Shown: positions 39,824 through 60,018 of the stretch, piece after piece
How positions within the stretch are numbered: the first letter of the stretch is position 1
How the letters are laid out: each line of letters begins with the position of its first letter
Assembly: GCA_050747885.1 (NCBI GenBank)
Contig: JBOGJO010000034.1
Span: forward strand, 69 to 64,068
Length of the DNA stretch: 64,000 nucleotides
Direction of reading: 5' to 3'
DNA from: Thermoanaerobaculia bacterium
GTDB taxonomy: Bacteria; Acidobacteriota; Thermoanaerobaculia; UBA5066; DATFVB01
Position numbers and translations under genes: made by a program
The notes under the pieces: generated by a model
The model's database searches: none
What the model saw: the letters and a program-made list of their open reading frames with translations, nothing else
What the model was told of the DNA's origin: nothing

Positions 39824-39900
39824 GCGCCCGTAGCTCAACTGGATAGAGCATCAGACTTCGGATCTGAGGGTTGGGGGTTCGAATCCCTCCGGGCGCACCA
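39824..39900 (+). tRNA. tRNA-Arg (anticodon TCG)
   Basis: Manual fold: acceptor GCGCCCG/CGGGCGC, D-arm GCTC…GAGC, anticodon stem TCAGA/TCTGA with loop cTTCGga, T-arm GGGGG-TTCGAAT-CCCTC, 3' ACCA. Confidence 0.85.
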
Positions 39901-40155
39901 AATTTCGCTCCACTTCGTTCCGCTTAGGCTTCGCGCGTCCTTCGCTGCGCTCGGACAAATTTGGACGTCTGACCTGGGGGAAGCTTCCCCCATCTGAATC
40001 GAGTTGTCCTTCAGGTCGTCGAGGGAATCCGCGGGGGGCTGGAACGGATGCCGCTCGACTCTGAAGCCTGGCACGCTGCCGAGGGTCGGGCAGGCTTCCT
40101 TGTAAATCGGGTTCCGGTTTCCGCTGCCCGAGGAAGCGGCCGTCGGCGACGTGAC

Positions 40156-40243
40156 GACGATGAAAATTCCCGAGACCCTACGGGAGCAATATTACGGCGA
40201 TGGAAACTCGCTCTTCTTTCGCTGGATTGCGGCGAGGTGACTG
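40156..40243 (+). repeat. 88-bp direct repeat copy A (encodes a 26-aa peptide MKIPETLREQYYGDGNSLFFRWIAAR)
   Basis: 86/88 identical to 48439-48526. Both differences are synonymous third-position changes in the peptide frame. Confidence 0.8.
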
Positions 40244-40251
40244 GTGAGGAA

Positions 40252-40437
40252 CTAAACCCGCATGAGTTGCGGGGGGTTGTCGTAGTGGCGGTCGCGGTCA
40301 TGCAGCACAGAGTTGCTCTGGAGGACGAGCGCGGCGACCCACATGTCGTTGGTCGGAATTGGAGTTCCGGCGACGCGGAGCTGTCGGAAGAGCGACACGA
40401 GGCGTGCGGTTTTCTCTTCGCCGCGGCAGAGATCCAC
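40252..40437 (-). pseudogene. Truncated PIN-domain (VapC-like) toxin remnant
   Basis: Translation …GTPIPTNDMWVAALVLQSNSVLHDRDRHY… matches the VapC C-terminal ND.WIAA…L.T.D motif. Only about 60 aa are present. Confidence 0.4.
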
Positions 40438-40464
40438 GTGGCGGTTCGTGTCGAGTCCTGAGCA

Positions 40465-40935
40465 TCACTTTCGCCCCGTCGGCCTTGAGAGATGGGCGGC
40501 GCAATTGATGAACCCCGGCTCACGAATCGAGCCGCAAATCGGACACAGCCCGGCCTTTCGTCGTTTCGCCACCCGCTGTCTCGCGTAGGCGCGCTCTTGC
40601 TCGCGATGAAAACGGCAAAGCCGAGTTCCCGTCTTCACAGCTTTGCCGCACCTCTCGCAGCGCCCCGCCCTTGCGCGTTGGCGCTTCAGGGCACGGCTGA
40701 AGTCGCGCATTTCCTTGAGATGTCTCTTGCAGCAAACGTGAGGCTTAGAGGCTGGGCGGGCGCACTTGACGCACCGCCCGACTGCCTTCAGCTCTGATGT
40801 TCTGCGGCGCGAATGCTCGGCGCGCATTCTCCGGTGCTCGCCGCAGACCGACAGTCCGCGAAGACGCTTCTTCGTGCAGTGAGAGCACCGGTCAGAAAGC
40901 TTGCGTCGGTGGATCGCTTTGCGTCTGGAGGTCAT
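40465..40935 (-). CDS. Basic protein with four tandem C-x2-C-x9-11-C-x2-H zinc-finger-like repeats
   Basis: Repeats CSHC…CGEH, CVKC…CCKRH, CERCG…CRFH, CPICG…CAAH. Each is followed by an Arg/Lys-rich stretch. Codon usage is atypical for this genome. Confidence 0.6.
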   Translation of the reverse strand: MTSRRKAIHRRKLSDRCSHCTKKRLRGLSVCGEHRRMRAEHSRRRTSELKAVGRCVKCARPASKPHVCCKRHLKEMRDFSRALKRQRARAGRCERCGKAVKTGTRLCRFHREQERAYARQRVAKRRKAGLCPICGSIREPGFINCAAHLSRPTGRK

Positions 40936-40953
40936 GGCCTCTCGCACTCGCCG

Positions 40954-42063
40954 TCATCGCCTCTCTTCTATCGGGGGCGGCGCCAAGGGCTGAACCGGGC
41001 CGGAGATCGATGGTTCCACGTTCTGAGGAGGCGCGATCTCACTTGATCGTTCTGCTTCGGGGCGCAGCTTGCCGAGAAGAGAGGAGAAAGACTTCGCCGT
41101 GTCGTCGGAGCCAGCCGGAAACCTTCCGAGAAAGAACTGGATCTGGCTCTTTGAGGCCGTGGCCGGAATGACCACCACCCGGGCGGTGGCGAAGACTTTC
41201 GATAGACTCGCTCGATAGAGCCTCGCGCGGCCTGCCGCCGGGGAGCGAGCCACCTGGTCCGCAATCGCCAGAAAAGTCTGCCGTTCAGCCCGCGCCGCCT
41301 CGGTGATCTCCTTGTTCCGGCTTTCTGCCTGTCGGACGTCGGTCTCGGCCTGCGCGCGGGCAAGTGAAAGTGCTTGCGACGCTTTTCCCTGAGCCTCGCT
41401 CACCCGCCTTTCTCTCCAGGCGGCCGCGTCGGATACTGCGTTGAAGGCGCCCGCCGCCTCCGCGGGTGGGCTGACCGCCGCGAGGGAGACCTGAAGCAGA
41501 ACGATTCCCGTGCGTGTTTGCTCGGCTGCGGCCTGAGCGGCGCTTCGGACAGCTTCCTGCAGAGCGCTCTTTCCCGTGGTCAGCACTTCGTCGACCGGCA
41601 AAATGCTGATCTCGCGGGCCAGCGCGGCAATTGCGGAATCGAGCAGCACGCCGTTGGGGTCGTATTGCGCAGTACGAAACAGGCCGGCATCCTCGATCCG
41701 GTACTGCAACTGTCCGCTGATCTCGACGAGATTTTCGTCGCCGGTAATGAACTCCAGCGTTTCTGTCTCTCTTCTGTTTAAAGGAAGCGATCGCACCGCC
41801 CCGACCGCTACGACCTCGAATTCCTCCATCAGGGGAATAGCAAAGGTCGCCCCCGGCGACACTCGGCCGTCCACGAGCTTCCCGAGCCTTCGCCGGAGAC
41901 CCCGCTCGTCATTGCGGACCACCCGGATTCCCGAAGCCATGAGAACGAGAAGGGCGAGAAGAAGACTCGCGAGCGCGCCTATGCGTCGGCGCCGATACAG
42001 GGCGGCTGCGGCCGCCCGAATCCTGACGACGTGACGGGGCTGGGTCAATTCGGGTTCGTTCAT
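40954..42063 (-). CDS. SPFH/Band-7 family protein (HflK/HflC-like)
   Basis: N-terminal TM. SPFH core …LEFITGDENLVEISGQLQYRIEDAGLF…. Coiled-coil Ala/Glu-rich C-terminus. Start overlaps the upstream stop (ATGA). Confidence 0.8.
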   Translation of the reverse strand: MNEPELTQPRHVVRIRAAAAALYRRRRIGALASLLLALLVLMASGIRVVRNDERGLRRRLGKLVDGRVSPGATFAIPLMEEFEVVAVGAVRSLPLNRRETETLEFITGDENLVEISGQLQYRIEDAGLFRTAQYDPNGVLLDSAIAALAREISILPVDEVLTTGKSALQEAVRSAAQAAAEQTRTGIVLLQVSLAAVSPPAEAAGAFNAVSDAAAWRERRVSEAQGKASQALSLARAQAETDVRQAESRNKEITEAARAERQTFLAIADQVARSPAAGRARLYRASLSKVFATARVVVIPATASKSQIQFFLGRFPAGSDDTAKSFSSLLGKLRPEAERSSEIAPPQNVEPSISGPVQPLAPPPIEERR

Positions 42064-42956
42064 GGGTGATGGGCGCCCGTTCCCGGCCCCTCATTGAGCA
42101 CCTTCAGCATCGGACTCTTCGAGTCGAGAAAGATTGTGGTCTCGGCTCCGATCGACTTTTCGTACCCGTGCAGGGCTCGAAGAAACTCGTAGAGCCGCGG
42201 GTCGCGCCGATACGCCTCCCCGACGAGGCGCGTGGCTTCGGCCTCGCCCTGCCCCCGAAGAATCTCGGCGTCTCGCGCCGCTTCGGCCAGGAGTGTGCGT
42301 CGCCTCTCGTCGGCCTCGGCTTCGATCTTCTGACCCGCCTCTTCCCCTTCGGAGCGAAGGCGCAAGGCGATCCGGGCTCGCTCAGCGCGCATTCTCGCGA
42401 CGATCGCTTCCCGGTTCTGGCCCGGAAAATGGACCTGTGAAAGCCACGCCGCGTCTGCCTCAACGCCGAGACTCGCCCTCGCGAACGCGTCCACCCTCTG
42501 CCGGACTCGTTCGGTGAGCTCCGCCGTCCGAACGGTGCCCGGCTGGGTGGAGAAGAAAGCCTCCGATGGCATGCGCCCGGCGGCTGATCCGAGGGAGGAG
42601 ATCGCGAGATCGATCAACCGGGCTTCGGCACCGTCGACGTCCCGGACTCGTTGGAGGAAGAGAGCCGGGTCGGAGATTCGCCAGAGCAACGAAAGCTCCA
42701 GCACGAGGTTTTTCTTGTCGGATGTCAGGAACTCCGTCGGCGGAATCCGAAACAGTATCCGGCGGCGATCCAGCCGGAACACCGACCCGATCGGCCTCGG
42801 GAGAATCAGGTGCGGCCCCGGCGCGAGAGGGCCGGAGACGAGGCGCCCGAACCTCGTTGCGAGGGCGACCTCGGTTTCGTCGACAATGACCAGGGAGTCG
42901 AGCGCCAGTGCGACGATCGCCCCGACGAGCAGGAACGCGAGTGTCGTCTTTTTCAT
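42060..42956 (-). CDS. SPFH/Band-7 family protein (HflC-like)
   Basis: MKKTTLAFLLVGAIVALAL… (signal anchor). …FLTSDKKNLVLELSLLWRISDP…. ATGA overlaps at both ends. Confidence 0.8.
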   Translation of the reverse strand: MKKTTLAFLLVGAIVALALDSLVIVDETEVALATRFGRLVSGPLAPGPHLILPRPIGSVFRLDRRRILFRIPPTEFLTSDKKNLVLELSLLWRISDPALFLQRVRDVDGAEARLIDLAISSLGSAAGRMPSEAFFSTQPGTVRTAELTERVRQRVDAFARASLGVEADAAWLSQVHFPGQNREAIVARMRAERARIALRLRSEGEEAGQKIEAEADERRRTLLAEAARDAEILRGQGEAEATRLVGEAYRRDPRLYEFLRALHGYEKSIGAETTIFLDSKSPMLKVLNEGPGTGAHHP

Positions 42957-45247
42957 GGAGGTGCGGGTCCTTTCATGTCGGTCTTGGGGGCAGCCGGCGT
43001 GCCCCAGTCGAAGATTCTCGGCTCGACATTGGCGGGGAGGATGACCTTCGGCCGTCCGTGCAGCGCACGCTCGATCGTGTTCCACCAGAGACGGAGCCGT
43101 GAGGCTGCGAGCCGGCCTGCAGCGGCCGCCGCCTGGAGCTGGAAGGAATGCCCTTCTCCTTCGGCCCGCAGGATCGTCTCCGTGCGATCCGACCGGGCGG
43201 CGGCCAGCTCCGTGGACGCCTGAGCGCGAGCGAGAGGAAGCGCGGAGTCGAGCTTTCCGCGGGCCTCGAAGATCCTGCGTTCTTTCTCCTCTGCGGCGCT
43301 GCCGACATCCCGAAACGCTGCGACCGTCTCTTGCGGTGGATGGAAGTCCAGTATGTTGACCGCGCCAACCGAGAGCGGAATGCCACTGCGGTCAAGCTCT
43401 TCCTGAAGTCGAGCACGCGCGGTTTCTTCGAGCTCTCCCCGCTGCTCTGTCAAGGACGTGTCGATCCCGCGTGTCGCGAGAAGGCTCTTGACGACGCTCA
43501 AGAACGGCGGGCGGACCGCGTCGATACCGTCGCGGGTTCGAAATGCCAGCTGGTACGGGTCCCGTACCCTCAGGTGGAGCGCGGCTTTGATCTCGACCAG
43601 ATTCTGATCGCCTGCCACGAACGATGCTTCTCCGGGCATGTCGTCCGAGCTCGTGTAGATCGAGTGCCAGTATTCAGAAAAGGGATCCCAACGGATTCCC
43701 TGATAATCGGCGACCGGCTTCCCACGGAACCCCACATCGACCTTGAGAAGTTGCTCCGCCGGAACGACCCTGAAGGCGCCCAGCGGCGGCGGCAGCGCCC
43801 AGTGCCATCCCGCGGGGAGCGCGAATGGATTCGCACGGCCGAGAGTCTCTCGAATGGCGACCGAGCCCGGCGGGACACTGACGAATCCTCGCGCCATCCA
43901 TAGCAAGACCGCGACAGCGCCGCCGGCGCCGATCAGACGAACCTTGTTCGCGGTCTCGGCTCTGTGGAGGCCCGACTGAAGACCTCGCCGAGCGGTCTCG
44001 GGAACGAGACCTTGCACGGCTTCACGGATCTCCCGGCGTCCTTGCTGCCATCCCACACGAAGCAGTGACACGAAAAAGACAATTCCAAAAAGGACGCCGA
44101 AGAGAATCTCCCAGCCCGAAACGTTCTCCGTCAACAGCGGCTGGCCGGTATATCCGGGCCCGGTCAATGAGCGGCGCAGCCCATGAAGAATCAGCCCGAA
44201 TGCCAGCGAAATCGAAAAGCACGAAATCAGGAGGGCCCGAATATATTTTCGGCCGAAATGCCGACGCAGGACGAGAAGGCTTGCTGGATTCGTGATGGGC
44301 CCGGTCAGGAAAATCACGAGCGCCGCGGCGGGGAAGAGGCCTTTGGCGACAAGGACGGCCGCCAGCGGGATCGTCCCGGAGGCACACACGTTCAGGGGGA
44401 TGGCGATGAGCGCCGCGAAGACGAACTGGCCGAACAGTCCCCCGGGAATTCGGGACGCAAAATCCTGCGGCAGAAGCGAGGCGAGAAAACCGGATAGCAG
44501 AAACCCGAAGAGGAGCGGCCAGGCTATCGCGTCGAGGAGCTCTCCGAAGCCATAGAGTGAGACTTCTCGAAGGGCTCGGGCCGCCTTCACAAGGAGCGGG
44601 CTCGCGGTCGCCGGCCTCTTATTGGCGCCCGGCGCTTCGCGCTCCACCGCAACGTCCGAAATAGCGACCGGCTGCGGTCGCGCCCGGAAGGCTACCCATT
44701 TGCGGCGAATGAGGTGTAGCCAAAGATTCATGCGCCGCCATCCGCGCGGCAACTTCCGCCGGGAGTCGAGACCCGGCGTCATTGCATCCGCCGTCGCGCT
44801 CGGCGCATCAGGAGGTCCCCAGGCTGCCGAGGCGATAACAAGAACCGCGCCGAGAATCGCCGCGCACAACCCGGCAACGACCCTGGCGATGGCGAAGCCC
44901 CAACCAAAGAGACCCGCTGTGAGAAAGACCGCATCCGGGCTGTCTTCCGGCGTCGAGACCAGGAACGCAGCCACACTCTCGGGCGTGGCGCCCTGCTTTC
45001 TGAGCTCGAGCGCGACCGGGAGAGTGCCGCAGGAGCAGATGGGAAGCGCTACCCCCGTCATGAGCCCGGCTCGAACGGATCGCAAACCTGGCGAGGATAA
45101 GCTTCGCCGAATTCGTCTCCTTCCGCTGACGAACCGGTGGAAGAAACCTGCGACGATGAGGCCGGCAAGCAGGTAGCCGCTGCTTCTCGCGAAAAGTTGA
45201 AGCGAGAGCGAAAGCGTCTGCTCGACGAGGCCCAGAAAGCCGCTCAC
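42953..45247 (-). CDS. Fusion protein: COG0701/DUF318-type permease (ArsP/SO_0444-like, CSCG motif) plus a C-terminal SPFH (HflK-like) domain
   Basis: N-terminal about 330 aa polytopic region with the GVALPICSCGTLPVALEL motif. C-terminal …FVAGDQNLVEIKAALHLRVRDPYQLAF… SPFH domain and coiled coil. Confidence 0.7.
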   Translation of the reverse strand: MSGFLGLVEQTLSLSLQLFARSSGYLLAGLIVAGFFHRFVSGRRRIRRSLSSPGLRSVRAGLMTGVALPICSCGTLPVALELRKQGATPESVAAFLVSTPEDSPDAVFLTAGLFGWGFAIARVVAGLCAAILGAVLVIASAAWGPPDAPSATADAMTPGLDSRRKLPRGWRRMNLWLHLIRRKWVAFRARPQPVAISDVAVEREAPGANKRPATASPLLVKAARALREVSLYGFGELLDAIAWPLLFGFLLSGFLASLLPQDFASRIPGGLFGQFVFAALIAIPLNVCASGTIPLAAVLVAKGLFPAAALVIFLTGPITNPASLLVLRRHFGRKYIRALLISCFSISLAFGLILHGLRRSLTGPGYTGQPLLTENVSGWEILFGVLFGIVFFVSLLRVGWQQGRREIREAVQGLVPETARRGLQSGLHRAETANKVRLIGAGGAVAVLLWMARGFVSVPPGSVAIRETLGRANPFALPAGWHWALPPPLGAFRVVPAEQLLKVDVGFRGKPVADYQGIRWDPFSEYWHSIYTSSDDMPGEASFVAGDQNLVEIKAALHLRVRDPYQLAFRTRDGIDAVRPPFLSVVKSLLATRGIDTSLTEQRGELEETARARLQEELDRSGIPLSVGAVNILDFHPPQETVAAFRDVGSAAEEKERRIFEARGKLDSALPLARAQASTELAAARSDRTETILRAEGEGHSFQLQAAAAAGRLAASRLRLWWNTIERALHGRPKVILPANVEPRIFDWGTPAAPKTDMKGPAPP

Positions 45248-45283
45248 ATCATCTCGGCGTCCGGGGAAGCGTGTCCGTCATCG

Positions 45284-47716
45284 TCAGAACGTGTACTTCA
45301 CTCTCGCCGCCAGCGTCCTCGGCGGAATCACGTGCGTTCCGCCGAAGGTCGAGAGCACGTTGTAGACACCTTTCTTATCGAAGGCGTTGAGTAAGTCGAC
45401 CTGCAACGAGACGGGAACTCCGTAGCGCGTTAGATCGGCCCCGGCAGAGAAATTCCAGATCGTGCGGGGCTTGATCCGGTTTGGATCGAGGTTCGTGTTC
45501 GACGTGAAGTTGATGTATGGGTACGCGAAGGCGTTGTCCGGGTCCTGCAGGATCGTTTGGTCCGCCCCGGTGACGAGCCCGGAATCGTAACGGGCCATCG
45601 CCGCCGCCCAGAACCCGGACGATCCAAAGGCATAGTTCAACCCGCCCTGAATTTGGAGTTTCTCGTCGTGGTCGATGACGAAGGGCCCCCCGTTGACGGC
45701 GTCGAGCGCGCCCGAGTCCAGGAAGAGGCCGCCAGCCAGCGGCGGCACGTAGATGGCGCGCGTGTGGCCGACCGAAAGGTACCCTCGAAAGCCATCGATG
45801 GGAGCCGAGTCCAGGCGCACGTTCCACCCGTGGAGTTTTCCTTGCGAAAACGCCAGCGGAAAGACGATCCCCGTGTTCTGGAACTGGTCCTGGTCACCCG
45901 CAAATTTCGAGTCGCGCCGCCAAAAATCGACATCCAGGCGGACATAGGGGCCGACTTGCTGCTGGAGTCCCAGGTCATACGCGTCCTGCCGCTCCGACGG
46001 GACGAAGAGGAGACCGTCGCCGAGCGCTCTCGACTGCTGCACGTCCGGCGGGGCCAGCGCCGCGGCCTCTTCCGAGGAGGAGAAGAGGATGTTCTCGTAC
46101 TCCGGTGTCTCGAAGATCCGGTTGTACGAGGCTCGAAAGACGGACTTCGTTTGGGAAATGAAGTAGCTCACACCGACTCTCGGCTCGAGCTGGGATTCTT
46201 TCAGTGGAAAGCTATTATGGTCATAGCGCAGTCCGATCTGTGCCGTGAGATTTCCGAGCCGGATCGTGTCCTCCGCGAATCCGGCCAGGTAAGTGACCGT
46301 CTTGGATTGTTCGAACCGGAAGACTGCGCCCCCTCGCGTGAGGTCATAAGGCGCGAGATTGGGATTGTAATCGGGCGACGAGGGATCGTTGAGGTTCGGG
46401 TCGGTGATCCCAAAGGAGAACCGCTCTTGAATGGGATAGCTCTTCAAGATGGCTCCGAACTTGAGCTCGTTCGCGTTGCCCACCTGAATCGAGAGTGTCG
46501 GCTGGACGCCGTAGTTATCGAGCGACCGCTTGGAGCTCGTGATGACCGACGGGTCGTTGGGCGAACCGCGGTACGTGAACCGGTTGTTCCGGGCGAAAAG
46601 CGTCGTGTCGAGCACGGTCGTCGAGCCGAAGACGTGTTGCCATCCGAGGTTCGCGTTCCAGTCGGTCGTCTCGACGGTGTTGTCCGTATCCGCGGCCTGC
46701 TGTGTGAGCGTGTTCGTCACATCCCGATTGGTCCTCCCGATGAGTCCCGAAAGTCGGAAGCTGTCGCCGCCGCCTGGCGTCGTTCTGTCGAGGCGTAGGA
46801 AGGCCCGTTCGGTGTCGCCGTGGTTGTGAAAATTGTCAAAGTTGACGGGATCGAGGAACCGATCGGATTTCGAGCCGTCCACGGACCCGAAGTACCCGAG
46901 GGTATCGGAGCCCCCTCCCACCGAGGCCCCGGCGTCGTAGGTGCCAAACTTCGCGCCGCCCGCGTGGACGTCCCCGTGCGGGCCGCCGGTTCCGAGGCCC
47001 GATTTCGTCGTCAGATTGATGACCGCTGCAATCTTCTCGCCGTATTCGGCCGGCACGTTCCCGTAGATGACCTCCGCGGACTGAAGAATGCCGGGGTCGA
47101 TCGAGTTCGAAAACGTCGTGCCGATCTGGTCCGTGATCGGCTGGCCGTCGACGACGTAGCTCTGCTGGCTGTGCGCGCCCTGAAAGTGGTAGCGCCCGTT
47201 CTCGTCGGCGGAGAAACCGGGCGCCTGGATGACAAGCGCTTCCATGCCGCGCGACGGAGTCGCCGCAGGTGCGTGCTCGATGAACGACTTGTCTATGTCG
47301 ACGTGCGATTGCGACGAATCGGTCTCAAGGACCGCCGCCGGCTTCTCCGCCTCCACCTTCACCGTTGCTGTCACCGATTCGAGAGCGAGGGTCACGGGCT
47401 GATCGATCGGCGCGGTGCTCCGCACGTCGATTGCGAGGTGTTGCGTCGCGAAGCCCTGCACCTCGACGTGGAGTTCGTAGGGGTTGAACGGAACGTTGAA
47501 GAATGAGTATTTCCCGTCCGCTTCCGTTACGGCCTGCGCCTTGAACCCGGTGATGTCGTTGCGAAGGACGAGCGGAACGCCCCCCATCGGTTTCCCGTCG
47601 GGTCCGGTTACCGTCCCGCGAATCGAACCGGCGGCAAGCGCCGCGAGACAGTTGTTCCTACCCAGGACAAGCGAGACGGACAAAGTCAAAATCGATATCA
47701 GGATGCGATTTCTCAC
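45284..47716 (-). CDS. TonB-dependent outer-membrane receptor with N-terminal CarboxypepD_reg-like domain
   Basis: GTG start after GGGAGGAAA. Signal peptide. …GTVTGPDGKPMGGVPLVL…TEADGKYSF… is a CarbopepD_reg fold. Plug and 22-strand-barrel length (810 aa). C-terminal …KYTF. Confidence 0.85.
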   Translation of the reverse strand: MRNRILISILTLSVSLVLGRNNCLAALAAGSIRGTVTGPDGKPMGGVPLVLRNDITGFKAQAVTEADGKYSFFNVPFNPYELHVEVQGFATQHLAIDVRSTAPIDQPVTLALESVTATVKVEAEKPAAVLETDSSQSHVDIDKSFIEHAPAATPSRGMEALVIQAPGFSADENGRYHFQGAHSQQSYVVDGQPITDQIGTTFSNSIDPGILQSAEVIYGNVPAEYGEKIAAVINLTTKSGLGTGGPHGDVHAGGAKFGTYDAGASVGGGSDTLGYFGSVDGSKSDRFLDPVNFDNFHNHGDTERAFLRLDRTTPGGGDSFRLSGLIGRTNRDVTNTLTQQAADTDNTVETTDWNANLGWQHVFGSTTVLDTTLFARNNRFTYRGSPNDPSVITSSKRSLDNYGVQPTLSIQVGNANELKFGAILKSYPIQERFSFGITDPNLNDPSSPDYNPNLAPYDLTRGGAVFRFEQSKTVTYLAGFAEDTIRLGNLTAQIGLRYDHNSFPLKESQLEPRVGVSYFISQTKSVFRASYNRIFETPEYENILFSSSEEAAALAPPDVQQSRALGDGLLFVPSERQDAYDLGLQQQVGPYVRLDVDFWRRDSKFAGDQDQFQNTGIVFPLAFSQGKLHGWNVRLDSAPIDGFRGYLSVGHTRAIYVPPLAGGLFLDSGALDAVNGGPFVIDHDEKLQIQGGLNYAFGSSGFWAAAMARYDSGLVTGADQTILQDPDNAFAYPYINFTSNTNLDPNRIKPRTIWNFSAGADLTRYGVPVSLQVDLLNAFDKKGVYNVLSTFGGTHVIPPRTLAARVKYTF

Positions 47717-47798
47717 GGGTTTCCTCCCTCAAATGTGAACCCCTGCGCGCGCGGCGCAAGCCGCGAGCGATACCGTTGTCTATTCGTTCGACGGGGGA

Positions 47799-48209
47799 TC
47801 AGATGAGGGAGGGAGGACCGCGGGCAAGAGATTCGGAACGGAATCCAGAGAGTTGAGGACGATCCTGGGCGGCGCGAACAGCTTCAACTGTTGCGAGAAA
47901 GATCCGCGCGGGGGGTTGAACTTGAATGCCGGTGAGGTGCTGACGCAGACAGGCGAGGCAGGGTTCGACTTCGACGATCAGGTCCGGGTGCCAGTGGGAA
48001 GCCGTCGGGTTGGCGCAGGAGATCTCGTGAACCTCGCGGACCGTGTTCGAGTCGTCAAAAAGCCATTCCGCCGTCAGCGAGCTTGAGTGATGATGGGTCG
48101 CCGTTGCGACGACCACCTGGGAGAGCAAGACAAGAAGCGTGATCCCAAACCGGAGAGAGGTTCGCGTATTTCGGCAGGCTTCACGCCGGCTCACACGGTT
48201 GGTGGTCAT
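47799..48209 (-). CDS. Small secreted His/Cys-rich protein (possible periplasmic metal-binding protein, DUF2946-like)
   Basis: Start MTTNRVS…. TM/signal segment LRFGITLLVLLSQVVVATA followed by THHHSS and CLACL. Lies directly upstream of the TonB-dependent receptor. Confidence 0.4.
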   Translation of the reverse strand: MTTNRVSRREACRNTRTSLRFGITLLVLLSQVVVATATHHHSSSLTAEWLFDDSNTVREVHEISCANPTASHWHPDLIVEVEPCLACLRQHLTGIQVQPPARIFLATVEAVRAAQDRPQLSGFRSESLARGPPSLI

Positions 48210-48438
48210 TCCACCGGAGGATACCACTCCCGGGACGGCGATTCTCTGTGTCCACATGCGTTTTTGCGTCGTCGCTCTCGATCCGATCAGACCGAGGACC
48301 CAGAATAGGCCTACGACGGCCCGGTCGTGACTTACGGCACGATGATGATGCCGGGGCCCTTGACCACCGAGCAGTTGCTTCCGCCGTTGTCGCAGAGGGA
48401 AGCCGTGTCGTCGTACGGCTTGCCGCTACTCGCGTCCT

Positions 48439-48526
48439 GACGATGAAAATTCCCGAGACCCTGCGGGAGCAATATTACGGCGACGGAAACTCGCTCTTCT
48501 TTCGCTGGATTGCGGCGAGGTGACTG
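48439..48526 (+). repeat. 88-bp direct repeat copy B (same 26-aa peptide ORF)
   Basis: See copy A. Followed 8 nt later by the tRNA 3'-half repeat. Confidence 0.8.
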
Positions 48527-48533
48527 AAAGACG

Positions 48534-48578
48534 TCAGACTTCGGATTTGAGGGTTGGGGGCTCGAATCCCTCCGGGCG
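48534..48578 (+). repeat. Direct repeat of the tRNA-Arg 3' half (att-like remnant)
   Basis: cagacttcggatTtgagggttgggggCtcgaatccctccgggcg matches the tRNA sequence at 43 of 45 positions. Confidence 0.75.
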
Positions 48579-48587
48579 GTTCGCGCC

Positions 48588-49517
48588 TTACGGCTCTTCG
48601 GACTGAGGCGGCTGTCCCCGCGAGGCCGCCAGAAGCGCTTTCGTCAGTGCTTCCGGCTCATCCGCTGCAACGAGAAGACGCGAGAAGGGTCGCTGCCATG
48701 CGGGGAAGAGCCCGTCTCCGCGTACCGGCTCGCGCGTATCGATTTCCACGATGCCGCTGCCCGTGAGCGTCATGAGGAGCGCTCCCCGCGCATACAATTT
48801 CAGCTCTCGCCGGGTGTCGAAGGGCCTGACGACTCGGGCAGTCTTCAGGAGCGCGGGAGAGAACACGACCCGGTTGAGCGCGCCGCGCTGGAGGTCGACG
48901 GACGTCGGCGAAATGCGATGCGGACGGCGCTGCGCCGTCTCGACGAGGCCGAGAATCCAGAATAAGCCGTAGACGTCGAGGGCCGTGATGGCCCGGTGAA
49001 GAAACCAGAGTCGGCGCGGAATGACCGCTGCGAGAAGCAGCACGTCGGCGGGAACCGTGAAGACGAAGAGCACCGGCAGAAATCGGATGTAGGCGTCGCG
49101 GACGTATCCGAACCCTTCCGAGTGTCGCCGGTACGGCGGAAAGAGAATCCGGAAGCCAAGGCCGATCATCACGAATTCCAGCGCGAGCGCTCGCGCGACC
49201 GGCTGCGGAACAAACGCGGACAGGGCTCTCTCGATTCGTCTCTCCGGCAGGTCACCTTTGACAGTTCGGCGACGATAAATCGCCAAACCGCCCCAGACGA
49301 CAAGCGGAATTTCGATCGCCGCGGCCATGGGCGCAAGAGTGCGGCGTGTCGCCCGCCCGGAGAGAAGAACGACGAGCTCGCAGAGAATGACCGCTGGAAG
49401 AATCAGTCGAGTCGCGGGCAAATCGCCACGCGCCGCGCGCACGGCATCGACGAGGACTCGCACGAGGAGCAGGGCCATCAGGATGAAAAGGGCGACGTGC
49501 TCCCAGGAAAGTGTCAC
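48588..49517 (-). CDS. Hypothetical polytopic membrane protein
   Basis: 309 aa with at least 6 hydrophobic helices. No family recognised. Confidence 0.5.
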   Translation of the reverse strand: MTLSWEHVALFILMALLLVRVLVDAVRAARGDLPATRLILPAVILCELVVLLSGRATRRTLAPMAAAIEIPLVVWGGLAIYRRRTVKGDLPERRIERALSAFVPQPVARALALEFVMIGLGFRILFPPYRRHSEGFGYVRDAYIRFLPVLFVFTVPADVLLLAAVIPRRLWFLHRAITALDVYGLFWILGLVETAQRRPHRISPTSVDLQRGALNRVVFSPALLKTARVVRPFDTRRELKLYARGALLMTLTGSGIVEIDTREPVRGDGLFPAWQRPFSRLLVAADEPEALTKALLAASRGQPPQSEEP

Positions 49518-49698
49518 GCCGAAGGTCCTCTCGTCACGTTCACGGCCCGGTGCTAAACCTCTCGCGGGGCAGAGGGCGTCGAGCGAAGGAAGGACGGCTC
49601 ATGCGGACAGGTGAATCGGTGGAGCATGGATCTCGCGGAACGACCGGCGGTCGCCCCGCGCGGCCCCGGCGGTCGCGCGAGACGAGCCTGGCCGTGAG

Positions 49699-50130
49699 TT
49701 ATGGCACGATGATGATTCCGGGATCCTTGACCACCGAGCAGTTGCTTCCGCCTTTGTCGCAAAGTGAAGCCGTGTAGTCGTACAGCTTGCCGCTGCCCGC
49801 GGCACCGGTCGGCAAGCCCGAATTGCACTGCTGGTGAGTCCCGCTGCAGTCCTTGATGTTCTTGAACGCGTCGGGATCGGCGAAAACGATCTTGACGTTG
49901 GGCATGTTCGGGTCGATCGACCTCCACATCACGGTGTTGCCGTTCTGCTTGGATATGTAAGCGAGCTTGCAGCTCACCTGTGCGCCCACGTCGATTTTGT
50001 GATCCTGGGGGTCGGTGTTGCAGGGCGTCTTCCAGTCGGAGGTCTTCGCCGCCGCCATTGCGGACAGCGGGAACGCCGCCAGAGCGGCTGCGAAGACAGC
50101 CGAGCGGAACATCGTGCGATTCGGGTCCAT
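49699..50130 (-). CDS. Small secreted Cys-rich protein (hypothetical)
   Basis: ATG at 50130 with an AAGGAGGAG Shine-Dalgarno sequence. Signal peptide MDPNRTMFRSAVFAAALAAFPLSAMA. 8 Cys. A diverged copy of its 3' end lies at 48331-48433. Confidence 0.6.
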   Translation of the reverse strand: MDPNRTMFRSAVFAAALAAFPLSAMAAAKTSDWKTPCNTDPQDHKIDVGAQVSCKLAYISKQNGNTVMWRSIDPNMPNVKIVFADPDAFKNIKDCSGTHQQCNSGLPTGAAGSGKLYDYTASLCDKGGSNCSVVKDPGIIIVP

Positions 50131-53748: not shown

Positions 53749-55479
53749 CTAAGGCGCTCCGGCCGACGACGGGCCGGGGAAACCGGCGGTCGTGGGCACC
53801 GGCGGCGGGCTCGGGGACCGCGCGAGGGAGAGGGCGTAGTAAACGAGGGCCCAGCGCCTTTCCTCGGCGACCGCGTTCTTTTCGAGGTCGCTCATCTTCG
53901 AGAGAACGTCGGAGGTGGGAAGTGTTGCGACGTAGGTCTGGATCTCCTGGATCTCCGGATCCGAAAATGCCGGCTTTCCGCCGATGAGCTGCCGGTAAGG
54001 ACCCATGTCGGTGTAGGCCTCTTTCGGATACAGGATCGAGTCGTAGAAAGAAGGCATCGGGGTGCCGTTGAGCCCCGTGTTGAAGGTCCGGTACACGTCC
54101 TGCGGAGAGTTGCCGAACTTGAAGTTTCCAGTCGTGAAGTCGAAAGGACGAATCGGGACTTCCCAATCGTCGGCGAGGGCGGCGGCCGACGGTCCGTCCC
54201 CCTTGCCGGTCATTCCGTGGCAGCTCCAGCATTGGAGAACCCGGAAGACCATTCGGCCTTCGTTCAGCACGGCGGCCGGCGCTTCTTTGGGAGACGGGTA
54301 CGGCGGCACCGGAATCGTGATCGACGGGGGCACGGGCTCGGTTTTGAAGCGGTCCGAGAACGTCTTCACGTAATCGACCAGGTCCCAGCGGTCCTGCTCC
54401 GGCAGGAAATGTCCGTCCTGCATGTTGCCCCAGGCCGGCATGATCTGGCCCTTCCGGACGCCCCGGGTGATCGTGCGGAAGATGTCCTCGTCGCGGGGAA
54501 GCGCCCCCGACGGCGTCGTACGGCTCTTGAACACGCCGAAGGTGAAGTTTCGAGGTTGGGGGTTGAGAAAATGGTACGCGTCGTTGAAGTTCGTGGAGGA
54601 GTTTGCATCGGCGGTGAGCCGCCCGTTTCCGTAAGCCCCGTGGCACCCGACGCACTTCTTTTCGAAGATCGCCTTTCCGCGCGACACGCGCAGGTCGAGG
54701 GCCTCGGTCGGAGTCGGCCGCGAGTTCGTCGGCCACGGCTCCCAGATCCGCCAGTCGCCGATCGCGGTGCCGATCTTCTGAAGATACGCTTCGACGGCGA
54801 TCATCTCGCCCGTCGGGCGCGGCCCGTAGTCGTGCATGTCGATGATGCCGTCGCCCCGGGTTCCGTCTGCGTTGAGCGGCCAGACATCGAGGTCTTTCCA
54901 GTTCGGGGGGAGCTCGTCCGGAGTTACGCTTCCGTCGCCGTTCTTGTCGAGCTCGGTCTTGGTCACCCGGCCGTCGTGGTTCTTGTCGTTCTTCGCGATG
55001 AATTCGCGGACCACTTTGTCACGGGCCGGATCGTCCGCGTAGAGCCATTGAAACGACGGCATGATCGATTCGGGCTCGACGGCGCGGGGGTTCCAGTGGT
55101 GCGCGTAATGCCATTCGTCGGACCGGCGATTGCCCTCGCGCGAGAGCTCGGGGCCGATGCGCCTCGTGCCGAACATCTGGGGAAGGTCGTATGCGATTTC
55201 ACCGGCCTGAGAGACGGGTCCCCACTTGTCGGTGTCGCGGTTGACCGGCCGGATGTACTGAGAGTGGCAGTACCAGCAGCCCTCACGGATGTAAACCTTC
55301 CGGCCCGACTCCTCGAGAGCCGTCCGGTGGGGCGAAGGAATCGTGGTTCCCTCGATGGTGCGGACGATGCCGGGGCGGGTCGTTTTCTTCTCGAGCCACG
55401 GCAGGACGCCCTGGCTGGTCATCGCGAGCGCGTAGAACCCGACGGCGGCGATGAGGATGATCGGCTCGATGCGTTTCAT
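53749..55479 (-). CDS. ccoO: Fusion of the cbb3 oxidase mono-heme subunit CcoO with a diheme cytochrome c (CcoP-like), with two internal EF-hand-like Ca-binding loops
   Basis: CcoO part …CWYCHSQYIRP…MPSF…. Linker DKNHDGRVTKTE and DKNGDGSVTPDE. Two further heme motifs CVGCHGAYGNG and CWSCHGMTGKG. Paralogous to the protein at 57064-57825. Confidence 0.8.
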   Translation of the reverse strand: MKRIEPIILIAAVGFYALAMTSQGVLPWLEKKTTRPGIVRTIEGTTIPSPHRTALEESGRKVYIREGCWYCHSQYIRPVNRDTDKWGPVSQAGEIAYDLPQMFGTRRIGPELSREGNRRSDEWHYAHHWNPRAVEPESIMPSFQWLYADDPARDKVVREFIAKNDKNHDGRVTKTELDKNGDGSVTPDELPPNWKDLDVWPLNADGTRGDGIIDMHDYGPRPTGEMIAVEAYLQKIGTAIGDWRIWEPWPTNSRPTPTEALDLRVSRGKAIFEKKCVGCHGAYGNGRLTADANSSTNFNDAYHFLNPQPRNFTFGVFKSRTTPSGALPRDEDIFRTITRGVRKGQIMPAWGNMQDGHFLPEQDRWDLVDYVKTFSDRFKTEPVPPSITIPVPPYPSPKEAPAAVLNEGRMVFRVLQCWSCHGMTGKGDGPSAAALADDWEVPIRPFDFTTGNFKFGNSPQDVYRTFNTGLNGTPMPSFYDSILYPKEAYTDMGPYRQLIGGKPAFSDPEIQEIQTYVATLPTSDVLSKMSDLEKNAVAEERRWALVYYALSLARSPSPPPVPTTAGFPGPSSAGAP

Positions 55480-55482
55480 GGC

Positions 55483-56886
55483 TCAGCTCCACTGCGGTTC
55501 GGGCGCGGCGGCGGCCGAACGGGACAACGCCGGCCCGGAAACGGCGGTCTTGTAGAAGTTCCACATCCCGAGGATCGCGCCGATGTCCATCGTCACCCCC
55601 GCGAGCGTTCGTGTGAACCAGTACGGCTTCATGGCGACCATGGAGTCCACGAAATCCGCGCCGGTCTGGAGCATCTCGCCCTGCATCAGTCCTTGCAGGG
55701 TGAGAACTCCCGCCATCACGGAAAAGCCGCCGATGGTGAGCCAGTAGTGCCATTGAGCGAGCTTTCGGGAATAGAGCTCCCGGCCGGACAACCTCGGGAT
55801 CACGTAATAAAGGCCCGCCGTGATCCAGAGAATGAACGTGCCGAACACCGTGAGGTGGGAGTGCGCGATGACGAAGTCGGTGAAATGCGTCAGCCGCTGA
55901 ACTTCCCGAAGCGCCTCGGTGGAGCCCTGGAAGCAGCCGAGCAGGTAAAAGAGCGCGCCGACGATCAGGAATTTAGCCGTGTACGATTCCTGGAACCGCT
56001 TCCAGTTTCCGACCATCGTTCCGTAGAAATTCTGGATCACCGTCCAGACCGGAATGATGAGCATCATGGAAGCGACGATCGCGATCGTCTGGGTCCAGTA
56101 CGGGATCGGGCTGTAGATGTAATGGTGGGTCCCGACGAAAGGGTAGAAGAACGCGAGCGACCAGAATCCGATGAGCGAGAGGCGGTGGCTGTACAGCGGC
56201 TGACGCGCGGCAAGCGGAAGAAAATAGTAGATCACCGCGAGTCCGGCCGGAGTGATCCAGAGCCCCACGACGTAGTGGATGTAGAGACCGTGCATCGCGG
56301 CGTTGTTCACGCCCGCGAAGTGGAACGGCAGCAGGAAATGCCCGAACGCGTAATTGAACGTCGTCCAGACGAAGGCGGCCGTGAGGTACCAGAGGGTCAC
56401 GTAGATCAGTTTTTCCTTCCGGTGGATGATCGTCATGATGATCTGGATCGTGATCAGCAGGAAAACGAGCTCGACGAGGATGTTGGCCCAGGTGGGAAAT
56501 TCGCCCGCTTCGATTCCAAGGTTCGAGCCGAGCGGCAGTGAAATCAGAGCCGCCGTAAAGCCCAAATTCCAGACCCAGAAGATCGCTCGGCTCCAGTTTT
56601 CCTTGTACATCCTCACGCCGCACAGGCGCGGAACCATGTAATACGTCAGGCCGAAGATCGTCGTCGTGAACGCCCCGAAAACGACGCCCATGACGTGGAC
56701 CGGCCGGAGCCGGCCCCACGTCAGCCAGGAAATGCCCCCGAGGAAGTCATAGAAGTTGAACTTGATCGAGAGGATGACGCCGATCGTGGGCGCGAAGACG
56801 AGCCAGAAAGCGCCCGACAGGAGGAACTGGAGAACGACCGTCCGATCGACGAGGTCGTCCGCTGGACGTTCCGCGATGCTGCTCAT
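55483..56886 (-). CDS. ccoN: cbb3-type cytochrome c oxidase subunit I
   Basis: 467 aa. 12 TM. Heme-copper oxidase His ligands (…FVIAHSHLTVFG…, …VGTHHYIY…). AGAGGAGGA Shine-Dalgarno sequence. Confidence 0.9.
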   Translation of the reverse strand: MSSIAERPADDLVDRTVVLQFLLSGAFWLVFAPTIGVILSIKFNFYDFLGGISWLTWGRLRPVHVMGVVFGAFTTTIFGLTYYMVPRLCGVRMYKENWSRAIFWVWNLGFTAALISLPLGSNLGIEAGEFPTWANILVELVFLLITIQIIMTIIHRKEKLIYVTLWYLTAAFVWTTFNYAFGHFLLPFHFAGVNNAAMHGLYIHYVVGLWITPAGLAVIYYFLPLAARQPLYSHRLSLIGFWSLAFFYPFVGTHHYIYSPIPYWTQTIAIVASMMLIIPVWTVIQNFYGTMVGNWKRFQESYTAKFLIVGALFYLLGCFQGSTEALREVQRLTHFTDFVIAHSHLTVFGTFILWITAGLYYVIPRLSGRELYSRKLAQWHYWLTIGGFSVMAGVLTLQGLMQGEMLQTGADFVDSMVAMKPYWFTRTLAGVTMDIGAILGMWNFYKTAVSGPALSRSAAAAPEPQWS

Positions 56887-56898
56887 GCCGATCCTCCT

Positions 56899-57054
56899 CT
56901 AGGGTCGCCAGAATCGAATCAGGTAGTAGACCATCCAGAACCCCAGGGCCGTGAACACGGCGATCAACCATCCCGGGATGATGCCGTGGCGCTCTTCGAT
57001 CCCCGTGAATTCGTAACGGTTGATTTCGTCGGGGCCGTGCTTTTCGGTGTCCAT
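56899..57054 (-). CDS. Small single-TM protein (CcoQ/FixQ-like cbb3 subunit)
   Basis: Manually translated 51 aa: MDTEKHGPDEINRYEFTGIEERHGIIPGWLIAVFTALGFWMVYYLIRFWRP. Lies immediately upstream of ccoN. Confidence 0.5.
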   Translation of the reverse strand: MDTEKHGPDEINRYEFTGIEERHGIIPGWLIAVFTALGFWMVYYLIRFWRP

Positions 57055-57063
57055 GCCGGACTC

Positions 57064-57825
57064 CTAGGGGCCCTGTTCCGGCGTCCGCCGCGGGCCCGGC
57101 GGGCCGAGGCTCAGGACGTAGTGCGCAAGGTCCCAGGCTTCATCCTTGTTGATCGAGTCGGCGTACGACGGCATCGGAGTGCCCGACAGGCCGGTGATGA
57201 AGACGCGGTAGATGTCGGCCGCGGTGTCGCCGCACTTGATGTGTCCCTCGGTGAGGTTGTAGGGCACGATCGGATTGCCCCAATCGTCCTTGAGCTCGTG
57301 GGCGGACGGACCGTCGCCCTGCCCCTTGTCGCCATGGCACTGGACGCACTGATACTTCACAAACAGCGCGCGGCCGCGTTGGATGGACTCGGGATTGTCG
57401 GCGGGCTCGGCAGGAATCGTGATCGAGGGCTGCGGTTTTTCCTTCGTCCACCGATCGGAAAACGTCTTGATGTAGGAGATCACGTCCATGCGCGCGCGGT
57501 GGCCGATGGCGAACCACGTGGGCATGGCCGTGCCGTAGAGGCCGCCTTTGAGCGTCTTTTCGAGGTCCGCGTCGGTCGGCAGCGAGCCCGAGGGAGTCGA
57601 GCGCCATTTGAACGTTCCCTCCCGGTAGTCGCGCGGTTTCGGCGTGATCCACTCGGCGTACTCGCCCTGGCCGTTGCCCGCGTCGCCGTGGCAGGACAGG
57701 CAGTAGCGCTCGTAGACGAGTTTTCCGCGGGCAGGGCTTCCGGGCTCCTCCGCCCGGAGGGCGAGAGCCCCCGTCAGAAGGGCCCCGATCCCCAGAACAG
57801 CGATTCTTTGAACGAAGCGGTTCAT
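57064..57825 (-). CDS. Periplasmic diheme c-type cytochrome (Cyc1/CcoP-like)
   Basis: Signal peptide. CLSCHGDAGNG and CVQCHGDKGQG. GAGGAGG Shine-Dalgarno sequence. Confidence 0.8.
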   Translation of the reverse strand: MNRFVQRIAVLGIGALLTGALALRAEEPGSPARGKLVYERYCLSCHGDAGNGQGEYAEWITPKPRDYREGTFKWRSTPSGSLPTDADLEKTLKGGLYGTAMPTWFAIGHRARMDVISYIKTFSDRWTKEKPQPSITIPAEPADNPESIQRGRALFVKYQCVQCHGDKGQGDGPSAHELKDDWGNPIVPYNLTEGHIKCGDTAADIYRVFITGLSGTPMPSYADSINKDEAWDLAHYVLSLGPPGPRRTPEQGP

Positions 57826-57835
57826 CGGTACCTCC

Positions 57836-59158
57836 TCAGAAAGCGAAGTCGATGCCGAAAAAGACGGTATTGGCTCGAATGTCCGATCCGTCGGACGCGA
57901 TCTTCTTCATCCGATTCGTCTGGTATTCGGCGTGGAGAGCGTATTCGGCCCGGTTGTTGTAATTGAACGTGTACTTGATTCCCCCGGTCAACTGATCCTG
58001 ATCGTTGACGTCCTTCGCGGTGCCCGGGATCGGCTGATTGGAGTTGCGGATGAGATCGTACCGGCCGAAAAGCCCCCAGTGGAGCAGGTCGGCGGAAGGC
58101 ACCCAGACCGCTTCGAGGAAACCTCCATTCCACGATCCCGCGCGAGTCGCCTCGCCGCCGTAGAGGTCGCGCGCGTCGCTGCCGTGGGCGTAAACGAGGG
58201 AGAAGTGGAGCGGGGTCGCGGCCGGGCCCAACCAGATCTGGGCCTCCGCGCCGTATCGGGACGTCGTCTTGAGATTTCCACCTTCGCCCGGGATCGGATC
58301 GCCTCCCGAGGTGAAGGCGGTCGTGGGGTAGTTGGCCCACGCGCCGAAGGCTCCGACTTCGAACTCCGAGACGGCCGTCGAGTCCGTCTGCCAGTATTTC
58401 TGGACGTGGCCGTAGAACGACGCCGAATCGAACGCGTTTCGCGTGCCGCTGGAGTCGTTCGCATTGAAAATATCGAAGTTGTAGCGCGTCATCGAGCCGC
58501 GATCATGGCCCGTGAATTCGATGCCGCGCTGGTTGGAGCCCATGTCGAAGGCCGCCGCGGCGTTCGAGTCGGCGGCCGGATGGTACCCGTAGATGAGGTA
58601 GCCGTTGGTGAGGTTGATCGACCGGTGCGCCGAGGCCGGAAGGTCCACTTCATGCTTCCCGACCCGAACGTTGAACCAGTCGGATTTGAAAAGAAACCTC
58701 GTGAGGTAAACCCAGTACGACTCGAGGGTCACCGAACCGTCCGAGGCGAATCCGGTCGGAACGACGAGGAACGAGACGTTGTTCGTGAGGGTTCCCGCCG
58801 TCAGCAGATCCATGGCGCCGTCGGCCACCCCTCCGGTCTTGAAGTTTTTCTTCCCCTGGTCGGTGTCCTGATTCGAGACGGTGTCGTACTCGTAGTGGGG
58901 AGTGATTCGGATGGCGACCGGCCAGTAGCCCGGCGGGGTCGTCGTGGGATCGTCCTTTCCGAGCCGGAGCTGGTAGCCGTTGTCGCGATACGCCCGGCCG
59001 AAATCGTTCAGGACGGGCCACGACTCATGGCAGCTCGTGCAGCGAAGGCCCGTCTTGCGTGCGAACGCCGGGATCGCGGCCGCTGGCCGCGCGCAGGAGA
59101 AGACCAGAGCGATGCCCAGCACCGCCGCTGGCAGGGCGCGAACCGGAAAACGTAACAT
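57836..59158 (-). CDS. Cyc2-like outer-membrane fused monoheme cytochrome c-porin
   Basis: ATG at 59158 after GAGGAGGUG. Signal peptide MLRFPVRALPAAVLGIALVFSCARPAAA. A single CxxCH near the N-terminus (KTGLRCTSCHESWPVLNDFG). About 400-aa amphipathic beta-rich region ending …FGIDFAF (C-terminal Phe). Confidence 0.65.
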   Translation of the reverse strand: MLRFPVRALPAAVLGIALVFSCARPAAAIPAFARKTGLRCTSCHESWPVLNDFGRAYRDNGYQLRLGKDDPTTTPPGYWPVAIRITPHYEYDTVSNQDTDQGKKNFKTGGVADGAMDLLTAGTLTNNVSFLVVPTGFASDGSVTLESYWVYLTRFLFKSDWFNVRVGKHEVDLPASAHRSINLTNGYLIYGYHPAADSNAAAAFDMGSNQRGIEFTGHDRGSMTRYNFDIFNANDSSGTRNAFDSASFYGHVQKYWQTDSTAVSEFEVGAFGAWANYPTTAFTSGGDPIPGEGGNLKTTSRYGAEAQIWLGPAATPLHFSLVYAHGSDARDLYGGEATRAGSWNGGFLEAVWVPSADLLHWGLFGRYDLIRNSNQPIPGTAKDVNDQDQLTGGIKYTFNYNNRAEYALHAEYQTNRMKKIASDGSDIRANTVFFGIDFAF

Positions 59159-59182
59159 CGGGCACCTCCTCAAAAACGCGTG

Positions 59183-59938: not shown

Positions 59939-59962
59939 TAAAATCTCCTAAAGAATAAATTA

Positions 59963-59991
59963 AAAATACGGCTCCCCGGAAAGAGTGTCAA
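59963..59991 (-). promoter_or_regulatory. Sigma70-like promoter for the cupredoxin-cyc2-cbb3 operon
   Basis: On the minus strand: TTGACA, a 17-nt spacer, then TATTTT, about 30 nt upstream of the cupredoxin ATG in an AT-rich stretch. Confidence 0.4.
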
Positions 59992-60018
59992 GCGAAAAAA
60001 TGAGTTCGCGGCCGGAAT

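Follow-up and report, generated by a model that had tools for sequence, protein, structure and literature searches.

A probable recombinase-less islet at tRNA-Arg(TCG) that holds a putative metal operon in a Thermoanaerobaculia contig

The cis-mobilizable elements (CIMEs) of streptococci are decayed remnants left by integrative and conjugative elements (ICEs) or by integrative and mobilizable elements (IMEs), which have lost the integrase and kept the att sites (PMC5704250). It is also well documented that tRNA fragments arise as a by-product of element integration, and PYG1 of Pyrococcus yayanosii lies between a complete and a partial copy of tRNA-Gln with 44-bp repeats (PMC9897764). In this study, we describe an interval at 39.9-48.6 kb of a 64-kb stretch of DNA (the whole stretch is called the window here), taken from a 64.6-kb contig of a metagenome-assembled genome (MAG) at NCBI that is annotated as Thermoanaerobaculia. 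The interval lies directly 3' of an intact tRNA-Arg(TCG) gene, which ends at 39900 with the interval starting at 39901, and it is closed by a truncated direct copy of the 3' half of that gene. We consider it, with a probability of about 0.6, to be a degenerate, recombinase-less islet at tRNA-Arg(TCG), that is, a composite scar which holds a putative metal operon and not a functioning element.

Such an islet would resemble the CIMEs in being enclosed by direct repeats derived from att sites at the 3' end of its target gene, in its accretion or multi-event structure, and in having no integration or transfer genes by Pfam, NCBIfam and tblastn with integrases. It differs from them in that CIMEs retain a functional attL and attR, whereas the distal site here carries two mismatches and is devoid of its last 5 nt; excision would not restore the tRNA, and no cognate integrase is known in the genome of the window. 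The islands at tRNA-Asn of Klebsiella (PMC4891358) reportedly carry integrases, unlike the islet described here. With those islands and with PYG1 it has in common an intact tRNA at one end, a partial direct 3' copy at the other, accessory cargo and a composition that is in part atypical. However, it has no complete distal copy, and its operon also exists outside islands.

tRNA-Arg(TCG) and its truncated copy

An earlier, sequence-only reading of this stretch had proposed an integrase-less island bounded by the tRNA and by a 45-bp repeat of its 3' half in the same orientation. The coordinates, the orientation and the 43/45 identity of this duplication were borne out by ARAGORN, Rfam and BLAST (E = 6e-14 within the window), and the tRNA proved to be the single tRNA gene in the window by ARAGORN and Rfam. 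The anticodon-loop core is identical in the two copies, here termed A (inside the tRNA) and A' (Table 1), and the left boundary of A' is T27, the start of the anticodon stem. The same reading had raised the possibility that the match belongs to a second tRNA gene. This is not the case, as neither ARAGORN nor Rfam calls a tRNA at 48.5 kb and the 30 nt upstream of A' have no resemblance to the tRNA 5' half, which marks A' as a fragment rather than a second gene. The description of the interval as integrase-less was confirmed as well: eight integrases from tRNA-Arg loci gave no tblastn match at E <= 0.01 anywhere in the window, and Pfam found no integrase in the interval or in the genes scanned at ~26.5-64 kb. 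Moreover, there are no structural, replication or conjugation genes in the interval, where the annotations from Pfam and NCBIfam are confined to transport, SPFH and zinc-finger genes, and its DNA has no match to phages or plasmids.

The behavior of tRNA-Arg(TCG) as a target was followed in the JGI metagenomes, which were scanned for the exact tRNA 3' half and gave at least 120 loci (L088-L207), nearly all of the matches listed being complete tRNA-Arg(TCG) genes. Among these matches, 16 of the 120 loci have a homolog of tyrosine integrases directly 3' of the tRNA and on the other strand, seven of the homologs being full length, and the representative tested (L094) matches PF00589 with E = 5e-25. 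In L109, the integrase is frameshifted and split over three frames, and a tRNA repeat is found 6.0 kb away. Also among the matches listed, six loci (L117, L134, L129, L191, L109, and L172) carry a partial, direct copy of the tRNA 3' end 1.0-6.7 kb downstream, and four integrase-less islets are bounded by tRNA repeats of 41-50 bp (L172, 6.7 kb; L191, 3.8 kb; L134, 2.1 kb; L117, 1.0 kb). A conserved 281-aa membrane gene follows the partial copy in L134 and L117 and stands directly after the tRNA in L091 and about ten other contigs, which shows that the empty and the occupied form of one site are both present. In about ten contigs the sequence ends no more than 30 nt from the tRNA, and the tRNA 3' half is absent from IMG/VR. 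These loci document tRNA-Arg(TCG) as a hot spot for integration in genomes of the soil Acidobacteriota type, where all stages of decay are seen, from an intact through a frameshifted integrase to islets that lack one.

The boundaries of these copies carry most weight for the origin of A'. T27 is the first base of the block of identity in L134 and L117, whose counterpart in L191, L172, and L109 is C32. The strongest argument for site-specific recombination over random truncation is that A' shares its T27 start with the genuine att duplications of L134 and L117. The metagenome islets (L094, L128, L109, L134, L117, L172, and L191) are comparable to ours also in using the same tRNA, in that several have no integrase, and in size, 1-6.7 kb against 8.7 kb, which we call overlapping. 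They differ from it in that their distal copies include the tRNA tail and in that nothing but the tRNA is common to them and the window; among the matches listed, no gene is shared between the window and any of the 120 tRNA-Arg loci.

Nested repeats, gene fragments and operon

Table 1. Features of the interval and its borders, in window positions
Feature	Coordinates	Strand	Evidence or remark
tRNA-Arg(TCG), intact, CCA encoded, putative attL-like role	39824-39900	+	ARAGORN; Rfam RF00005, 71.5 bits
Repeat A, tRNA positions 27-71, from the first anticodon-stem base up to the last base but one of the acceptor 3' strand	39851-39895	+	Repeat search; BLAST
Spacer x, 255 nt, unique, non-coding	39901-40155		Six-frame translation without a convincing open reading frame; self-BLAST
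Repeat B, 88 bp	40156-40243	+	Repeat search, BLAST; terminator-like hairpin on the - strand
vapC/PIN toxin pseudogene, C-terminal half	40252-40464	-	NCBIfam NF047959; PDB 6nkl VapC
Basic protein, 160 aa, four exact 38-aa repeats C-x2-C-x10-C-x2-H (WRC-like C3H zinc fingers)	40465-40947	-	Direct reading
HflK-like SPFH protein, 369 aa	40954-42063	-	PF01145 E = 1e-15; TIGR01933 E = 1e-37
HflC-like SPFH protein, 298 aa	42060-42956	-	PF01145 E = 3e-23; hflC models E ~1e-35
Fusion protein, 764 aa, N-terminal ArsP_1/SO_0444-family Cu/Zn-transporter-like permease and C-terminal HflK-like SPFH domain	42953-45247	-	Pfam, NCBIfam
TonB-dependent receptor, 810 aa, N-terminal CarboxypepD_reg domain	45284-47716	-	PF13620, Plug
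His/Cys-rich small membrane-anchored protein, 152 aa, first operon gene, start uncertain	47799-48257	-	No Pfam match
Repeat C, fragment of a secreted-protein gene paralog	48315-48434	-	88% identical to 49681-49801 (BLAST)
Repeat B'	48439-48526	+	86/88 identical to B (98%)
Repeat A', truncated attR-like copy of tRNA positions 27-71	48534-48578	+	43/45; without the 5' half and the CACCA tail
Membrane protein, 309 aa, family without a name	48588-49517	-	No Pfam match; first gene beyond the repeat
Repeat C', 3' end of the intact secreted-protein gene (49699-50130)	49681-49801	-	BLAST, translation; 121-bp repeat pair with C

On the left, the tRNA with A is followed by the 255-nt spacer, B, the C-terminal half-gene of vapC and then six intact genes; on the right, the C fragment is followed by B', 7 nt, A' and the gene of the 309-aa membrane protein. 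The structure is nested, the A pair enclosing the B pair, this pair the two gene fragments, and these the operon. The sequence-only reading had caught the 45-bp repeat and had overlooked its missing CACCA end as well as the 88-bp and the 121-bp repeats. The presence of a vapC half-gene at the proximal end, and of a gene fragment and repeats at the distal end, counts in favor of a decayed islet. The vapC fragment, which lacks the N-terminal ~65 residues, is a weakly supported assignment (NF047959, E = 7e-4 over profile positions 66-118 of 125; PDB 6nkl, E = 0.21; Pfam silent). Repeat C corresponds to the last 31 codons and ~15 nt of the 3' untranslated region of a gene paralogous to that of the secreted protein at 49699-50130, and its translation ends in SLCDNGGSNCSVVKGPGIIIVP followed by the stop. 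The spacer holds an 18-nt perfect palindrome at 39975-39992, which is its sole self-BLAST match.

The B copies are direct repeats with sharp boundaries and with different flanks, the spacer and the vapC fragment adjoining B, and the C fragment and the 7 nt before A' adjoining B'. Differing flanks of this sort are what a single homologous crossover leaves behind, or accretion with subsequent deletion. B encloses almost exactly a 26-codon open reading frame on the + strand, MKIPETLREQYYGDGNSLFFRWIAAR, whose ATG lies 4 nt inside the repeat and whose stop ends 3 nt before the repeat does. In this frame, the two positions at which B and B' disagree are third codon positions, and the changes there are synonymous. 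The frame has no match in Pfam or NCBIfam and no homolog was found, B has no Rfam match, and the 88-bp sequence gave zero matches in the JGI metagenomes and in IMG/VR. Three identities were considered for B and rejected: a structured RNA (z = -0.5, no Rfam match), an AbrB/VapB antitoxin (no support from Pfam or NCBIfam), and an integrase remnant, for which a tblastn match to one integrase (E ~1-3) was not repeated by blastp and for which Pfam and NCBIfam gave no support either.

The assembly was checked independently with Logan contigs from run SRR27067715 (L001, L002, and L211). The junction from the glyoxalase gene into the tRNA 5' half is reproduced in L001, the junction of the operon, the vapC fragment and B in L002, and that of the 309-aa gene, A', 7 nt and B' in L211. 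L002 and L211 each end exactly 30 nt (k-1) inside B, as is expected of a k = 31 graph at a true two-copy repeat. The break of L001 at base 39850 was considered as a sign of an excised form and rejected, the simpler explanation being that the tRNA 5' half is common to other tRNA-Arg genes.

All intact genes between the repeats lie on the - strand in one co-directional operon of six genes, in the order His/Cys protein, TonB-dependent receptor (TBDR), SO_0444-like permease::HflK fusion, HflC-like protein, HflK-like protein and C3H zinc-finger repeat protein. The gene list of the sequence-only reading was largely right as to the PIN fragment, the zinc-finger array, the TonB receptor and the His/Cys protein. 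As to its three SPFH genes, two stand alone, and the third SPFH domain is fused to the ArsP_1/SO_0444-like permease, a fusion that had not been seen (PF03773, E = 3e-35; PF01145, E = 8e-16; NF033936, E = 3e-63). Permease::SPFH fusions are rare, with 11 proteins carrying both domains in the search, that of the window included. The start of the HflC-like gene was taken from the Logan gene call (L002) and from the orthologs. The 160-aa zinc-finger protein gave nothing in a word-indexed search, and an exhaustive HMMER search gave 267 remote homologs, several with WRC-type C3H fingers, with PF08879 in relatives. Its family is a sparse one of bacterial multi-repeat C3H (WRC-like) zinc-finger proteins in which the number of repeats varies.

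The operon or parts of it were found elsewhere in Acidobacteriota. The genes for the His/Cys protein, the TBDR, the fusion, HflC and HflK lie in L086 among czcCBA, a P-type ATPase, ZIP, NicO and an extracytoplasmic function (ECF) sigma pair. The fusion-HflC-HflK trio is also present in L087, beside a ZnuBC-like ATP-binding cassette transporter and an rve_3 fragment, and in L208 and L209/210. The His/Cys, TBDR and zinc-finger genes stand together in L216 (zinc-finger gene at 10001-10624 of that locus), and in L212-215 the TBDR and zinc-finger genes lie 14 nt from the 3' end of tRNA-Asn. The receptor/zinc-finger unit abuts different tRNAs in three genomes, namely Arg, Asn, and Glu/Lys (L213, 1153-1242; L216, 5477-5551 and 15291-15366). 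The same tRNA-Asn 3' flank carries an Nramp transporter instead in L084 (2939-3030), which means that the flank is variable too. The 397-aa gene beside tRNA-Glu in L216 was considered as an integrase and rejected, as it encodes a beta-propeller-like protein.

The orthologs are 65-72% identical for the HflK-like protein (L086 and L087), 74-79% for the HflC-like protein, and 80-87% for the TBDR (L086, L212-215, and L216); His/Cys homologs precede the TBDR in L086 and L216 and are 46-47% identical. We rejected the view that the 87% identity of the TBDR to that of L086 reflects recent transfer. Since the TBDR is 80-87% identical in all four genomes against 46-65% for its neighbors, the high identity is attributed to conservation of the protein. 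The permease::HflK-HflC-HflK trio (42953-45247 and 40954-42956, - strand) is conserved and rare, lies beside metal transporters in several loci, and is uncharacterised as far as the searched libraries show. From its parts and from its neighbors elsewhere, the operon most likely serves uptake or homeostasis of a Zn/Cu-type metal. The C3H zinc-finger protein is probably its regulator, and that this regulator is a dedicated one is suggested by the zinc-finger homolog directly after the orthologous TBDR in two other genomes.

The composition of the interval is partly atypical. Its GC content is 63.0% against 65.3-65.8% in the flanks and is the lowest of all segments of 8.6 kb sampled in the window. 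The GC content at third codon positions (GC3) is 0.72 in the island and 0.81 in the other genes (Mann-Whitney p = 3e-4), a deviation that the sequence-only reading had proposed to compute. That reading had also named four codons as rare elsewhere in the window: AGA is enriched 2.3-fold in the island (p = 0.005) and TTT is enriched as well (p = 0.02); the excess of AAT is borderline (p = 0.07), and CAT shows no enrichment (p = 0.6).

Weighing the origin of the interval

The history that we propose for a decayed islet would run as follows. Firstly, an element with a tyrosine recombinase would have integrated at the anticodon-loop/3' half of the tRNA and would have supplied a new 3' half, so that the gene at 39824-39900 stayed intact while the old half was displaced to 48534-48578. 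Secondly, the integrase and nearly all genes of the element would have been lost, the half vapC, the 88-bp repeats near both ends and the 31-codon secreted-protein fragment being possible remnants of mobile origin, and a later rearrangement would have taken the last 5 nt of the displaced tRNA copy together with whatever lay beyond. The sole intact content is the six-gene operon, whose sub-units recur in other Acidobacteriota beside metal transporters. With no integrase in the 64 kb, the islet would now be fixed. Recombination between A and A' would yield a tRNA gene in which position 72 is G, the discriminator is T and the CCA is missing, and clean removal of the operon would be possible only by a RecA-type crossover between the 88-bp B copies.

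Several observations weigh against this history. Identity between A and A' ends sharply 5 nt short of the tRNA 3' end, with GTTCG after A' where the tRNA has CACCA. Because this tail is missing, an extra, unobserved rearrangement at the right edge must be assumed; the tail (CGCCA or CACCA) is kept in all six canonical partial copies that were examined. Neither an empty site nor an occupied relative was found among the homologs of the two flanking genes (55-64% identical) or at the JGI loci. For the left-flank BNR/sortilin protein, the nearest homolog in GTDB genomes is 64% identical, not syntenic, and has no tRNA-Arg nearby, and for the right-flank 309-aa protein there are three homologs, 55-59% identical, all in other contexts. 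The interval is a nested patchwork of multiple events and not the cargo of one element, the operon is enclosed more closely by the B pair than by the tRNA repeats, and it may have come in on its own, in a second event. Moreover, the operon or its sub-units occur at unrelated loci of other Acidobacteriota (L086, L087, L208, L209/210, and L212-216), and at none of these operon loci is there an integrase.

The composition adds to these points. The tetranucleotide deviation of the interval is unremarkable (z <= 1.7). In L086 and L216, the fusion, HflK-like and zinc-finger genes are equally poor in GC3 relative to their neighbors, which means that the GC3 dip may be intrinsic to the operon genes, or that the module may be foreign everywhere. 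As the same genes are low in GC3 in other hosts, the composition is no proof of foreignness. Homologs of the cargo were sought on known mobile elements, as the sequence-only reading had advised, and plasmids and phages gave none beyond generic HflK and TBDR matches at <30% identity. The proposal of a decayed integrative element put forward in that reading stands in part: the T27 boundary, the hot-spot tRNA, the gene fragments and the low GC agree with it, and the missing 5-nt tail, the patchwork and the presence of the operon at unrelated loci do not.

The alternative that survives best, although we regard it as rather unlikely, is an origin in two layers. The tRNA repeat would then be the scar of an old, almost fully deleted element, reduced to the tRNA, the 255-nt spacer, B, the 7 nt and A', and the 8.3 kb at 40244-48438, with the vapC fragment, the operon and the secreted-protein fragment, would have been inserted later by Campbell-type homologous recombination with a circular or donor DNA that shared B. 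This event would have duplicated B, and the operon would never have been the cargo of an integrase-bearing element. B and B' are sharply bounded direct repeats of 98% identity, their flanks differ exactly as a single crossover at B predicts, small integrase-less scars of 1-2 kb exist at tRNA-Arg elsewhere (L117 and L134), and the operon is self-contained and moves between contexts. However, neither a donor nor a circular form has been observed, the JGI metagenomes and IMG/VR do not contain B, the mismatches (2/88 against 2/45) are not sufficient to make the B pair the younger of the A and B pairs, and accretion and deletion in a tandem array could give the same structure.

It is improbable that the 45-bp match is what is left of a second tRNA-Arg(TCG) gene cut at both ends by unrelated rearrangements, with native DNA between the copies and no integration at all. 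Complete tandem copies of tRNA-Arg(TCG) lie 0.8-7.6 kb apart in L095, L191, and L172, A' does not have the 3' tail that a canonical attR keeps, and the GC3 dip may be a property of the operon. Against these points, the 5' break of A' falls exactly at T27 as in L134 and L117, where chance would hit either observed att boundary in roughly 2 of 77 cases, nothing of the 5' half is seen upstream of A', the toxin half-gene, the repeats and the gene fragments cluster at both ends, and the GC content of the interval is the lowest in the window.

We consider it distinctly improbable that the metal operon is a recombinase-free cassette relocating between tRNA-proximal sites of Acidobacteriota by way of short flanking repeats. 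The sites in question lie beside tRNA-Arg in the window, at a distance of 14 nt from tRNA-Asn in L212-215, and in L216 with tRNA-Glu on one side and tRNA-Lys on the other, and such a cassette may use integrases in trans, as in CIMEs, or a RecA crossover at the 88-bp repeats, whose two synonymous differences in the 26-codon frame hint at selection on the repeat. Mis-assembly is rated unlikely: a mis-join across the 88-bp or the 45-bp repeats, by which the island would not be contiguous in the real genome, is suggested by the MAG origin of the contig and by the breaks of short-k Logan contigs at repeat edges, but it is very hard to reconcile with three junctions independently reproduced in SRR27067715, with Logan contigs that stop exactly 30 nt (k-1) inside B, where a true two-copy repeat would stop them, with B copies that differ at two positions, and with the fact that assemblers with k > 88 span B. 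Taken as a degenerate islet, the interval is most likely an ordinary late-stage genomic scar linked to a tRNA, of a known kind and with no new mechanism.

Flanking genes and significance of the operon

The left flank consists of ordinary core genes, namely panB, panD, thiG, genes of cysteine and cystathionine enzymes, tryptophanyl-tRNA synthetase (TrpRS), dinB, the BNR protein and the glyoxalase. On the right, the stop codon of the 309-aa gene begins 10 nt past the last base of A', and the flank further includes a cbb3 oxidase cluster as well as genes of a Ser/Thr kinase and of a P-type ATPase. In tetranucleotide composition, the cbb3-type cytochrome oxidase cluster (54000-60000) is the strongest outlier of the window (z about 3) and exceeds the candidate island; its first-position GC is unusually low (0.53-0.62) and its GC3 very high (0.83-0.85). 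A 100-aa protein at 29732-30034 (+ strand), among cysteine and thiamine biosynthesis genes, has two treble-clef zinc-finger domains (PF13451 and PF23477) and no relation to the islet.

As an islet, the locus would represent a late stage of decay at this tRNA, one in which only an adaptive operon survives and in which the tRNA would be broken by excision. Of more interest is the cargo, a rare, uncharacterised module made up of a TonB receptor, a permease::HflK fusion, an HflC/HflK pair and a C3H zinc-finger protein. Since this module recurs beside metal transporters, it could be a new metal-homeostasis system.

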